From: Ginglymostoma cirratum | Lineage: Eukaryota | Direction: 5' to 3' | Length of the DNA: 64,000 bases | Assembly (NCBI GenBank): GCA_024137785.1 | Contig: JAHRHZ010000013.1 | Location: 45,665,433 to 45,729,432 of the forward strand | Part shown: piece by piece, positions 3,401-12,400 of the stretch | How positions within the stretch are numbered: the stretch's first letter is position 1 | Layout: each line of letters begins with the position of its first letter | Notes under the pieces: generated by a model | What the model was told of the DNA's origin: nothing | What the model saw: the letters and a program-made list of their open reading frames with translations, nothing else | Databases searched by the model: none | Program-made: the position numbers and the translations under genes

Positions 3401-6400
3401 GAAAACCTTGTCTCACACATTTCTTTTAAACTTCTCTGCTCACACCTTGAATCTGTGTTTCCTAGTAATTGACCCCTCCACCCTGGGAAAAAGCCTCACA
3501 CTTTCCACTCTTTCCATGCCGTTCACAATTTTTTAAACTTCTATCGGGTCGCCTCTCAACCTCTTGCATTCCAATGAAAACAGACCCAATCTATCAAAGA
3601 TAAAAGGGACTGCAGATGCTGGAGAATCTGAGATAACAAGCATGGGGCTGGATGAACACAGCAGGTCAAGCAGCATCATAGGAGCAGGAAAACTTGACGT
3701 TTCAGGCCTAAACACTTCATCAGAAATGGGGGAGGGGAAGAGGGTTCTGAAATAAATAGGGAGAGAGGGGGAGGCGGATAGAGGATGGATAGAGGAGAGG
3801 ATAGGTGGAGAGGAGGCAGACAAGTCAAAGAGGTGGGGATGGAGCCAGTAAAGGTGAGTGTAGGTAGGGGGGTAGGGAGGAGATAGGTCAGTCCCGCAGA
3901 ACTGACCAATCCCCCTCCACCGACACCCTCATCCGCTTAGCCGAACTCGTCCTCACCCTCAACAACTTTTCTTTCAATTCCTCCCACTTCCTACAGACAA
4001 AGGGGGTGGCCATGGGTACCCGCATGGGCCCAAGCTATGCCTGCCTCTTTGTAGGTTACGTGGAACAATCCCTCTTCCGTACCTACACTGGCCCTAAACC
4101 CCACCTCTTCCTCCATTACATTGATGATTGCATCGGCGCCGCCTCGTGCTCCCACGAGGAGCTCGAACAGTTCATCCACTTCACCAACACCTTCCACCCC
4201 AACCTGAAGTTCACCTGGACCATCTCTAACACTTCTCTCTCCTTCCTGGACCTCTCTGTCTCCATCTCGGGCAACCACCTAGAAATGGATGTCCATTTCA
4301 AGCCCACTGACTCCCACAGCTACCTGGAATACACCTCCTCCCACCCACCCTCCTGCAAAAATGCCATCCCCTATTCCCAATTACTTCGCCTCCGCCGCAT
4401 CTGCTCCATGGATGAGACATTCCACTCCCATACATCTCAAATGTCCTCATTCTTCAAGGACCGCAACATCCCCCCCACAGTGGTCGAGAACGCCCTCGAC
4501 CGTGTCTCCCGCATTTCCCAGAACACATCCCTCACGCCCCGTCCCCGCAATAATAACCAAAAAAGAATCCCCCTCATCCTCACGTACCACCCCACCAACC
4601 TCCGGATCCAACGCATCATCCTCCGACACTTCCGCCATCTGCAATCAGACCCCACCACCAAAGACATTTTTCCCTCCCCACCCTTATCTGCCTTCCGGAG
4701 GGACCACTCCCTCTGTGACTCCCTTGTCCGCTCCACACTCCCCTCCAGCCCCACCACACCCGGCACTTTTCCCTGTAACCGCAGGAAGTGCTACACCTGC
4801 CCCCACACCTCCCCACTCACCCCCATCCCAGGCCCCAAGAAGACTTTCCACATCAGGCAGATGTTCACCTGCACATCTGCCAATGTGGTATACTGCATCC
4901 GCTGTACCCGTTGTGGCTTCCTCTACATCAGGGAAACCAAGCGGAGGCTTGGGGACCACTTTGCAGAACACCTGCGCTGGGTTCGCAACAAACAATTGCA
5001 CCTCCCAGTCGCGAACCATTTCAACTCCCCCTCCCATTCCTCAGATGACATGTCCGTCCTTGGCCTCCTGCAATGCCACAGTGATGCCACCCGAAGGCTG
5101 CAGGAACAGCAAATCATATTCAGCCTGGGAACCCTGCAGCCAAATGTTATCAATGTGGATTTCACAAGCTTCAAAATCTCCCCTCCCCCAACCGCATCCC
5201 AAAACCAGCCCAGCTCATCTCCGCCTCCCTAACCTGTTTTTCCTCTCACCTGTTTTTCCTCTCACCTCATGCCCCATCCCCATCTCCTATCTACTAACAT
5301 CATCCCGCCCCCTTGACCTGTCCGTCCTCCCTAGACTGACCTATCTCCTCCCTTCCCCCCTGCCTACACTCACCTTTACTGGCTCCATCCCCGCCTCTTT
5401 GACTTGTCTGCCTCATCTCCACCTATCCTCTCCTCTATCCGCCTCCCCCTCTCCCTATTTATTTCAGAACCCTCTTCCCCTCCCCCATTTCTGATGAAGG
5501 GTTTAGGCCCGAAACGTCAAGTTTTCCTGCTCCTATGATGCTGCTTGACCTGCTGTGTTCATCCAGCCCCATGCTTGTTATCTCCCAATCTATCAAACCT
5601 TTCTTCAGAGCTAAAATCCCTATACCAGGCAACATCCTGGTAAACCTTTTGTGTACCAAGTCCAAAGCATCCACATCCTTTTGGTGGAGTGGTGACCAGA
5701 ACTGTACACAATAGTCCAAATGTGGCCAACTAAAGTCTACAAAGGTGCAGCATAACTTGTCTACCCTTATACTCAATGTCCCTTCCAATGAAGGCAAGCA
5801 TGCCATAAGCCCTTTTTACCGCCTCATTTACCAGAGCTTCCACCTTCAGTGATCTGTGGACCTGCACACCCAGGTCCCTCTGCATATCAATACTCCAAAG
5901 GGTTCTGCCATTCACTGTATAATTTCTATCTGTACGTGACCTTCCAAAATGCACCATCTCACATTTGTCCGGATTAAACTCCATCTGCCATTTTTCTGCT
6001 TGTGTCTCCAACTGATCTCGATCCTGCTGTATCCCCACCAACCACAATTCCACCAATCTTTGTATCATCCGTAAACTTGCTAATTAGACCAGCCACATTT
6101 TTCCTCCAAATCATTTATGTCGATCACGAACATCAGTGGTCCCAGTACCGATCCCTATGGAACATCACCAGTCACAACCCTCCATTCTGAAAAGCATCCT
6201 TCCACCACCACCCTGTGTTTCCTATGACTAAGGCAGTTCTGTATTCATTTTGACTCGGGACCTCAGTTGCAGAAAATAATCAAGAAATGGAATGCTGGCC
6301 TTTATTATCTAGAGACCTGGAGTACAAGGATGCAGAAGATCTGCTGCAGTTGTGCAAAACCCTTATCGTGAGTATCGTGAGCAGATCTGAACACAACACC

Positions 6401-9400: not shown

Positions 9401-12400
9401 CAGTCATCAGATACATCTTCCTGTTCCTCTTAGAAGTTTGTAAATTTTTATGAGATTTCCCTCATCATTCTTCTAAACTCCAGTCCAAGTTGCCTTCCCA
9501 GGAATCAGTCTGATAAACCTTCATTCTCTCCATCCATAGAACATCCATACTCCAATAAGGAGACCAATACTGCACAGAATATTCCAGATATGGTCTCACG
9601 AAGACGCTATACAATTGCAGCAAGACTCCCAGCTTCTTTACTTGAATCCTCTGGCAATGAAAGCCAACATACCATTTGTCCCCTTCACCACCAGCTGCAC
9701 CTGCATGCTACTCTCAGCAATTGGTGTACAAGGACACCAGGTCTTTTTACAATTCCCCCATCCCAATCTATCACCATTCAGATAATGATGTACCTTCTTG
9801 TCTTTGCTCCCAAAGTGGATAATCTTACATTTATCCACACTGTAGTTCATTGGCCATGCATTTGTGCTATGAACGACACATGGTAAGTTACTGCAGCCAT
9901 CAGGGATGCCACAAGGGTGTGGTAGGTAATCAATGACATGTGTTTGGTAACATAACAAGAAATCTCACTAGGCCTTGTGACAAAAAACACTCCAACAAGC
10001 TTGACACAACTCAGATTTATCCATAAAAAGGTTTTGGAAGAGTTTTGAGTTCTGAAGAAGGCTCATTGGATTTAAAAATTTAAATCTGTTTTCATCTGCA
10101 CAGATGGTGCAAGATCTGTTAAGTTTCTCCAGTACTTTCTGTTTTACTTCAGATCTCCAGCACCTGTACTTTGCTTTTATTTGGGGAGACTGGACCTGTA
10201 TTCTCTAGAGTTCAGAAGAATAGGAGATGATGTCATTAGAACTTACAAAATTCTTAAAGGACTCAACAGGATGTTTGCAGAATTAATATTTCCCCTGGAT
10301 GAATAGGTATAGAACCAGGGAACACATTATCAAAATAAGGGGAAGCCATTTTCGTCTTAGATAATGAGGAATTTCTTCACTCAGACTATAGTGAATCTTT
10401 AGCATTCTCTATCCCAGTAGGCTGTAGAAACTCAAGTCATTGAATATTTTCAAGACATTGATAAATTTGTAGAAACTAATGACATCAAGGGATATGCAGA
10501 CAGCACATAAAAATGGCATTGAGGTAGATTACCAGCTATGATCCAGAATGGCAGAGGAGGCTTGTGAGGCTGAATAGCCTACTCCTACGAGTATGTTTCT
10601 ATGTTTTNNNNNNNNNNNNNNNNNNNNNNNNNNNNNNNNNNNNNNNNNNNNNNNNNNNNNNNNNNNNNNNNNNNNNNNNNNNNNNNNNNNNNNNNNNNNN
10701 NNNNNNNNNNNNNNNNNNNNNNNNNNNNNNNNNNNNNNNNNNNNNNNNNNNNNNNNNNNNNNNNNNNNNNNNNNNNNNNNNNNNNNNNNNNNNNNNNNNN
10801 NNNNNNNNNNNNNNNNNNNNNNNNNNNNNNNNNNNNNNNNNNNNNNNNNNNNNNNNNNNNNNNNNNNNNNNNNNNNNNNNNNNNNNNNNNNNNNNNNNNN
10901 NNNNNNNNNNNNNNNNNNNNNNNNNNNNNNNNNNNNNNNNNNNNNNNNNNNNNNNNNNNNNNNNNNNNNNNNNNNNNNNNNNNNNNNNNNNNNNNNNNNN
11001 NNNNNNNTCCTCTATCCGCCTCCCCCTCTCTCCCTATTTATTTCAGAACCCTCTTTCCCTCCCCCATTTCTGATGAAGGGTTTAGGCCCGAAACGTCAAG
11101 TTTTCCTGCTCCTATGATACTGCTTGACCTGCTGTGTTCATCCAGCCCCATGCTTGTTATCTTCAATGAAAATTGTTTGGTTTGCTAAGGCAGGTAAACA
11201 TGAACTCCAGTTAGAAGCTGACGACAATGAACACAATATACAAATAACTTTATATTGACCTTAGATTCCAAGTAAAATAAACAGCAATGTGTTCAGTGAA
11301 GCAATCTCCGATATCGAGACTACATGAAATTTGCTAAACCACGTTTCATTTGGTGTTTTGTTGACTGTTTGGGTCTGTACTGAATGAAGATGTTCCTGTG
11401 TTTTGAAATTCCATGTTTGTTTGTCGTTAATGTTCTTTAATTTCAAACTTGGTTAGCAGCAGAATGGTGACCTGTGCCTCATACTATGTAGGCCAGGTGT
11501 TAAATGTTTTGAACTGTCTGGATAATGCAAAGCTATCTTATTTGCATTCTTTCTGCTAACAAGATAAAGAAACCAAATTTGGTCATGTAAATGCAGGGAG
11601 TTAGCTCACTGATTCAATCCTAATCATGCAGCTGCATAAAAACAGTTTCTAGGTCTGGGTTAAAGGCACATTGTGTTTGGAATGATTGGATCTAATTCCT
11701 TGCTGCGATAACTACTGGTTGAAAAGTTCTTCAGGCTGTAATCTTGACAGCTACACCAGATCACCTCTGCCTTTGCTCTATTTTATGCTACTCAAAGGCT
11801 TTTTCAAATAGGAAATGGTTTGTGCTCCAAACAATTTGGATTCTATAGTTATACAATGCTTACTGCACAACTGTGCAAGTGCTGGTTCATATATGTTTGG
11901 ACCACTGTTTAATATAACGTACAGTTTTGGACCCAAATCATAATAAGGAATTGGAGCCAATATCAAATGTACAATGGAGATTCAAAGGCTGTTTTGGATA
12001 TGAAAATAGAAATGCAAACATCCTGTGAAAAACTGACAATGTCTGTTAAAATAGAGGAAGGTCAAAAATCACATGACATCAGGTTAAAGTCCAACAGGTT
12101 TATTTGAAATAGCATGCTTTCCGAGCTCAACTTGCATTTTCAAATAAACCTGTTGGGCTATAACCTGGTGTCATGTGATTTTTGACCGTGTCAACCTGAG
12201 TCCAACACCAGCATCTCCACAAAATAGAGAAAATTCAGGAACAATTTAATGGAGGTGTTCGGGTTAGCGATTTTGCAGTGCTGGAGTAGGGCAGATAAAA
12301 ATAAACAGATCCATAGAACATGGAACATGGAACAGTACAACATAGTACAGGCCCTTCGGCCCACGATGTTGTGCCGAAATTTTACCCGAAACCTAAAGTC

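Follow-up and report, generated by a model that had tools for sequence, protein, structure and literature searches.

A 64,000-nt stretch of the Ginglymostoma cirratum genome (assembly GCA_024137785.1, contig JAHRHZ010000013.1, positions 45,665,433 to 45,729,432; hereafter the window, to which all coordinates refer) carries two minimal hammerhead ribozyme cores on the sense strand of one intron of a PCBP-like gene, and a preliminary description of this DNA proposed that they might act together as a cis-dimeric ribozyme in the PCBP pre-mRNA. We found it very probable that each core marks where a copy of a Penelope-like retrotransposon ends, that these two copies likely landed independently and by chance in one PCBP intron, and that they are inert there and are removed when this intron is spliced out. 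We hold it unlikely that the pair works as a cis-dimer in PCBP. Four results speak against the proposed double hammerhead: the copies are separate insertions of an abundant family, copy 2 is absent in a relative, a duplex is predicted to sequester copy 1, and the computed energy of the dimer is unfavourable.

The hammerhead cores and their host intron

A motif search of the window recovered the 28-nt core at 5491-5518 and 11070-11097, both on the plus strand as described earlier, and the 36-mers that include the stem I flanks are identical between the copies (Table 1). In both copies stem III is the loopless palindrome ACGU and stem I has 4 bp, one of them a G-U, again as described. The inventory of two sense cores was correct, but a third core on the minus strand of the same intron had been overlooked. 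The readable part of the intron yielded no further intact sense core; the next near match on the plus strand (50174) is in a different intron and carries a substitution in its core. None of 100 shuffles of the window reached three core matches. The motif is above chance against shuffled DNA, but the pairing of two copies is not above chance against the copy number of the family.

The CUGANGA and GAAA boxes and the NUH site of the minimal hammerhead class are all present. The definition in PMC4209133 includes an additional nucleotide lying between residues 9 and 10.1 and a G10.1-C11.1 pair, and both were found. By every sequence feature tested, the cores belong to the Penelope minimal-hammerhead class. 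The same paper bears out the earlier statement that Penelope elements carry type I hammerheads of the minimal form, whose palindromic stem III could work only in a dimer. In contrast, the Rfam covariance-model search proposed as a check gave no hammerhead at the gathering score in the window and none at E up to 10 in 5400-5600, where the four weak matches were unrelated.

The cores had been presented as free-standing motifs, which they are not: the repeat shared by the two copies extends over 139 nt at 98% identity and is a retrotransposon end. Copy 1 lies in a pseudo-long terminal repeat (pLTR) behind a reverse transcriptase (RT) and endonuclease frame, and copy 2 lies in sequence 98% identical to that pLTR. 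Among 30 loci of the family in the genome, stem I pairs 1, 2 and 3 are kept in 30, 28 and 29 and pair 4 in 21, and no compensatory changes were seen in them. In seven of the 30 (L002, L004, L013, L014, L017, L020 and L023) the pLTR match begins a few bases from the 5' edge of the hammerhead. The same start is seen in the window at 50170, 33966-34061 and 23624-23706, and many inversion junctions fall there too; the cause may be microhomology in AT-rich sequence, or else a genuine site of starting or stopping.

The PCBP-like gene on the plus strand, with both sense cores in one of its introns, was borne out by exon motifs and by the GT..AG ends of the intron. The exon encoding the second KH domain matches PCBP2 (PDB 2jzx, E 7e-25). 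However, the intron had been called the first, and the exon before it looks internal because it is preceded by a pyrimidine tract and an AG acceptor of its own.

Copy 1 belongs to a truncated Penelope-like element

Copy 1 is part of element 1, a 5'-truncated endonuclease-containing (EN+) Penelope-like element enclosed in 14-nt target-site duplications. This insertion of about 2 kb (3585-5597) consists, in order, of a target-site duplication, a tail, an inverted pLTR, a truncated open reading frame (ORF), a sense pLTR and the second target-site duplication. It is nested in an older fragment of a long interspersed nuclear element, presumably of CR1 type: the flanks at 3438-3594 and 5584-5700 match 56456-56612 and 56603-56720 of one unbroken copy. 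The inverted pLTR is 93% identical over 264 columns to 5334-5584 and 97% identical over 155 nt to the pLTR of copy 2 at 11008-11162.

The features of an EN+ Penelope-like element were found together, namely an RT plus a GIY-YIG-type endonuclease at the C-terminus in one frame, pLTRs, an inverted 5' copy and a tail. The ORF contains a YIDD motif (4117), a CX4CX2C linker (4774) and a GIY-YIG-like VVY..YIR (4885). The linker fits the CX2-5CxxC form of Neptune elements, a form that Neptune shares with Nematis (PMC8557442). A weak match of the ORF to RVT_1 (E 6e-4) was below the cut-off; the Pfam search with the whole frame 3868-5229 at E 0.001 gave no match, and neither did the GIY-YIG profile. 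In the Atlas, the ORF scores 0.96 against clusters whose members include HTH_animal, GIY-YIG and RVT_1. A search of the PDB with the ORF returned two weak matches, both unrelated.

Counted by eye, some six substitutions in about 250 nt separate the sense and inverted pLTRs of element 1, compared with about 4% divergence between the window and the relative described below. This lower divergence hints at a younger element 1, but the events are too few to use. Within the sense pLTR, a pyrimidine tract followed by AG at 5466-5467 looks like a splice acceptor and could be a cryptic site or the end of an intron of the element's own.

Copy 2 is a separate insertion that is absent in a relative

Only the 3' end of the second insertion is readable; its 5' part is unread because 400 N lie directly upstream. 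The spacing of 5.6 kb given for the two cores holds for the coordinates, but the distance itself is uncertain if these N represent an assembly gap.

We compared the site with contigs assembled from four sequencing runs of four studies. The intronic query brought up no RNA run; the best DNA runs share 0.29 of its words and come from a relative, not from this genome; in unique DNA the relative is about 96% identical (about 4% divergent). In three of the four runs a 1,492-nt contig bridges 10116-10607 to 11161-12087 with 82 letters between, and in the fourth two separate contigs were obtained. The site is empty, because 82 letters are too few for the 153 readable bases of the element, and because all four runs have non-element sequence immediately ahead of 11161. 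The relative thus lacks copy 2 at this site. The simplest account is that the insertion is younger than the split from the relative.

The N run also raises the idea that copy 2 was created by the assembly, with the end of a repeat set beside unread sequence. Copy 2 does abut the 400 N and is 97-98% like two nearby copies. However, its pLTR has two substitutions found in neither neighbour and meets unique DNA at the usual 3' end of the family, and at seven of 30 other family loci a run of N likewise lies no more than 300 nt from the core, so such adjacency is common. We consider an artefact very improbable.

The family is large and same-strand pairs are expected by chance

The 28-nt core, searched with one position degenerate, occurs 55,274 times in the 4.36-Gb genome (27,554 forward and 27,720 reverse), and a control pattern occurs 0 times. 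The exact 36-mer has 20,320 genome copies and a 22-mer just downstream has 97,004 exact copies. The hammerhead-bearing family is very large and young.

If the cores were placed at random, 3.5% of them would have another on the same strand no more than 5,579 nt away. With 55,274 cores in the genome, about 1,900 same-strand pairs this close are therefore expected (260 for the 36-mer). The first 100 listed cores include five same-strand pairs within 5,579 nt, two of them 94 and 403 nt apart, and 14 minus-then-plus pairs within 2.5 kb. Five of these 14 are spaced 438-466 nt apart, and several other same-strand or opposite pairs lie 430-500 nt apart; the 438-466 nt spacing may be a preferred size, or an effect of assembly or masking.

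A pile-up of 5' junctions of family copies at the cut site would be a fossil trace of cleavage in vivo. We therefore counted, for four points, the family copies that mismatch at each of the three bases upstream. At the cut site there are 647 such copies, and a sample of 30 comprised 17 simple truncations, seven inversions and six small indels. The counts were 213 at -7 (12 of 30 simple truncations), 159 at +4 (12 of 20, with a narrower pattern) and 1,158 at -22 (16 of 30). Junctions at the cut site thus exceed those at -7 and +4 and fall short of those at -22, where the sequence begins with the same three letters as at the cut site. No cut-site-specific junction signal was found in the comparison of the cut site with -7, +4 and -22, in which only the cut-site count has a denominator of its own (97,004).

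Predicted folding disfavours a double hammerhead

RNA folding was computed with ViennaRNA under the nearest-neighbour model. The inverted pLTR is predicted to form a duplex of -520 kcal/mol with copy 1 and of -312 kcal/mol with copy 2. The duplex with copy 1 would comprise about 250 bp around a 1.44-kb loop, and in the minimum free energy structure of 3600-5600, 34 of the 36 positions of hammerhead copy 1 are paired with 3692-3727. One copy is always predicted to be sequestered, because the inverted pLTR is transcribed first and pairs with either copy 1 or copy 2.

The double hammerhead was computed at -5.1 kcal/mol compared with -9.3 kcal/mol for each monomer hairpin, which places it 13.5 kcal/mol above two monomers even with the inverted pLTR left aside, and closing the 5.5-kb loop would cost an estimated further 13 kcal/mol or so. 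It has only 12 inter-copy bp and a computed weight near 1e-17 in the two-strand ensemble. The best fold of the monomer pairs the catalytic CUGAUGA strand with the strand of the GUC cleavage site (5492-5496 with 5515-5519) in an inactive hairpin, which on this model could be an off state of the whole family.

In the cis-dimer model the sense copies would form a common ACGU stem III and exchange their stems I, after which the nascent intron would be cut at each GUC site, with release of the RNA between them or reduced PCBP splicing. In its favour, the intact and identical cores share a transcribed strand within a single intron, and a nested double-hammerhead structure can be drawn for them. Dimer cleavage of such motifs has been published (PMC4209133; reviewed in PMC6765202), and hammerheads in native elements are about 3 kb apart (PMC4209133). 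However, the inverted pLTR is modelled to take one copy at a time with a preference for copy 1, which would leave no free pair; the few inter-copy pairs, their vanishing weight and the loop cost computed above also speak against it, and copy 2 is not conserved in the close relative. Taking both sides together, we hold out very little prospect for cleavage of this kind.

We also considered that the insertions act on PCBP RNA by means other than a ribozyme, either through a long double-stranded RNA hairpin that is edited from adenosine to inosine or alters splicing, or through cryptic acceptors in the pyrimidine-rich pLTR. Intronic inverted repeats can undergo such editing. The predicted duplex of about 250 bp would be a candidate, and the sense pLTR has pyrimidine tracts followed by AG, such as the one at 5466-5467. 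On the other hand, inverted pairs are common in the genome, so no effect special to PCBP is indicated, and editing without consequence would also fit inert insertions. An effect of this kind on PCBP would be most surprising.

The sequence of events that we favour for the two inert retrotransposon ends is as follows. Two family copies would have landed independently and by chance in the same 18-kb PCBP intron. During transcription RNA polymerase II would make the inverted pLTR first, and this is predicted to pair with copy 1 over the 1.44-kb loop and cover the whole core. Copy 2, if free, is predicted to have its catalytic CUGAUGA strand paired with the GUC strand, with no other intact readable sense partner in the intron. 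Both cores would then remain uncut on the pre-mRNA and be removed with the spliced intron. The literature suggests that the motif acts for the retrotransposon, in the cycle of its RNA, through a dimer that is weak or helped by protein, and not for the host gene.

Several observations weigh against this account. Three of the five near matches to the core in the window have two substitutions each, and yet both sense cores are intact. Two exact sense cores in one named 18.1-kb intron have a Poisson probability of 0.6%, or 0.09% when the exact 36-mer is counted, so that a pair of a kind common across the genome is uncommon at this one place. In principle the relative might have lost copy 2 by deletion, and the site of copy 1 is unreadable there since the contigs break in the surrounding high-copy repeat. 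Finally, the nearest-neighbour model takes no account of Mg2+, tertiary contacts or proteins, and the long duplex could be held open by proteins that bind RNA.

A broader idea is that sense pairs occasionally meet on nascent pre-mRNA and cut introns with the help of the element's protein or host chaperones. The inverted pLTR, which many insertions have, would then serve as a built-in antisense switch that turns the core off and lets introns tolerate the insertion; of the two PCBP cores, one would be silenced and one free. We regard this as a long shot. As found, the two cores are of little consequence, since the genome has tens of thousands of such retrotransposon ends. Were pairs of this kind to cut pre-mRNA, the transposon load would directly tax host transcription, and Penelope hammerheads would be shown to act in vivo, evidence that PMC4209133 and PMC11167929 describe as lacking. 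The genome copy number allows a statistical test of pre-mRNA cutting, which is better than a single locus.

Features of the window

Table 1. Location of the hammerhead cores, the insertions that carry them and the host gene features in the window.
Feature	Position	Strand	Basis or remark
PCBP-family exon, start of KH1	347..470	+	in-frame LMHGK; AG 345-346, GT 471-472
Host intron, 18,095 nt, all three cores inside	471..18565	+	GT..AG; next exon from 18566
Left 14-nt target-site duplication	3585..3598	+	14-mer present at 3585 and 5584 only
31-nt tail, at one end of element 1 only	3599..3629	-	alignment
Inverted pLTR, antisense to both sense cores on the pre-mRNA	3630..3893	-	alignments
Third hammerhead core	3696..3723	-	antisense; 2 substitutions in stem II
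5'-truncated Penelope-like ORF	3894..5229	+	open frame 3868-5229; RT and endonuclease motifs
3' pLTR of element 1	5334..5583	+	alignment
Minimal hammerhead copy 1	5487..5522	+	predicted cut 5518/5519
Right target-site duplication	5584..5597	+	repeats the 14-mer of 3585
Readable 3' end of second, separate pLTR insertion	11008..11162	+	pLTR alignment
Minimal hammerhead copy 2	11066..11101	+	predicted cut 11097/11098

Further pLTR remnants lie in PCBP introns at 27015-27348 (minus), 50170-50309 (plus), 24685-24768 (minus), 33921-34061 (minus) and 23592-23706 (minus), with core substitutions in those at 27082 and 50174. At 12060-12187 there is a 55-bp inverted repeat, 91% complementary with an 18-nt spacer and high-copy in the relative, which has the look of a small miniature inverted-repeat transposable element. 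Broken frames at 29698-31268 (minus) lie between 300-nt direct repeats at 28461 and 32843 (81%); we take these frames to resemble the protease and integrase of a long terminal repeat retroelement.

Comparison with known systems

A literature search on Penelope hammerheads in sharks, made in an incomplete library and judged by titles and the starts of abstracts, gave nothing on the present family. Published activities of related motifs vary. Minimal type I hammerheads are reported in the pLTRs of metazoan Penelope-like elements, fish included, where the monomer is inactive and dimers and trimers have low activity (PMC4209133). The hammerhead of an anole element cuts only with the element's protein, and no RNA-seq ends were found at the cut site (PMC11167929). 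One of nine Xenopus retrozyme dimers was cleaved (bioRxiv 10.64898/2026.07.22.740005). When placed in introns, N79, N107 and N117 reduce mRNA less than 3-fold and the engineered T3H48 reduces it 20-fold (PMC11856399).

The two PCBP cores resemble the amniote intronic hammerheads of RECK, CTCL and DTNB (PMC6155905) in being type I, on the sense strand of an intron and derived from retroelements. Those hammerheads make tertiary contacts and show conservation among birds, mammals or reptiles. In contrast, copy 2 has no stem I loop and, being absent from the relative of about 96% identity, lacks such orthologous conservation.

The double hammerheads of newt and axolotl satellites, which are non-LTR retrozymes (PMC7229834, PMC6155905), likewise place two copies on one RNA with an extended stem III. 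In these animals the cores are canonical, the tandem repeats are 150-450 nt apart, and cleavage and RNA products have been demonstrated (PMC7229834, PMC6155905). Unlike such retrozyme-type tandem copies, which lie a few hundred nt apart and are free to pair, the cores described here are minimal, about 5.6 kb apart, in separate insertions and faced with an antisense competitor, copy 1 being predicted to be sequestered.

Element 1 shares with Neptune-type EN+ elements (PMC8557442) the 5' truncation, the inverted 5' copy, a tail at one end in the 30-40-nt range described for EN+ Penelope-like elements, the C-terminal GIY-YIG-type endonuclease and the CX2-5CxxC linker. The likeness is one of motifs: element 1 is truncated, its second GIY-YIG motif reads YIR and the linker is also found in Nematis.

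The closest likeness is to the minimal hammerheads of Cervera and De la Pena 2014 (PMC4209133), with which the cores share the boxes, the extra nucleotide between 9 and 10.1, the G10.1-C11.1 pair, the 4-bp stem I, the lack of loop 3, the palindromic 15-16 and the location in a pLTR. The published motifs, like those here, are mostly single dispersed copies, with dual motifs close together on opposite strands. Stem II has 3-4 bp here, unlike the 7-8 bp of the Schistosoma motif in that paper. In copy number, the 55,274 exact cores found here far exceed the 4,000 of coelacanth and the 9,000 of Xenopus (PMC4209133); axolotl has 126,247 canonical type I motifs (PMC7229834).

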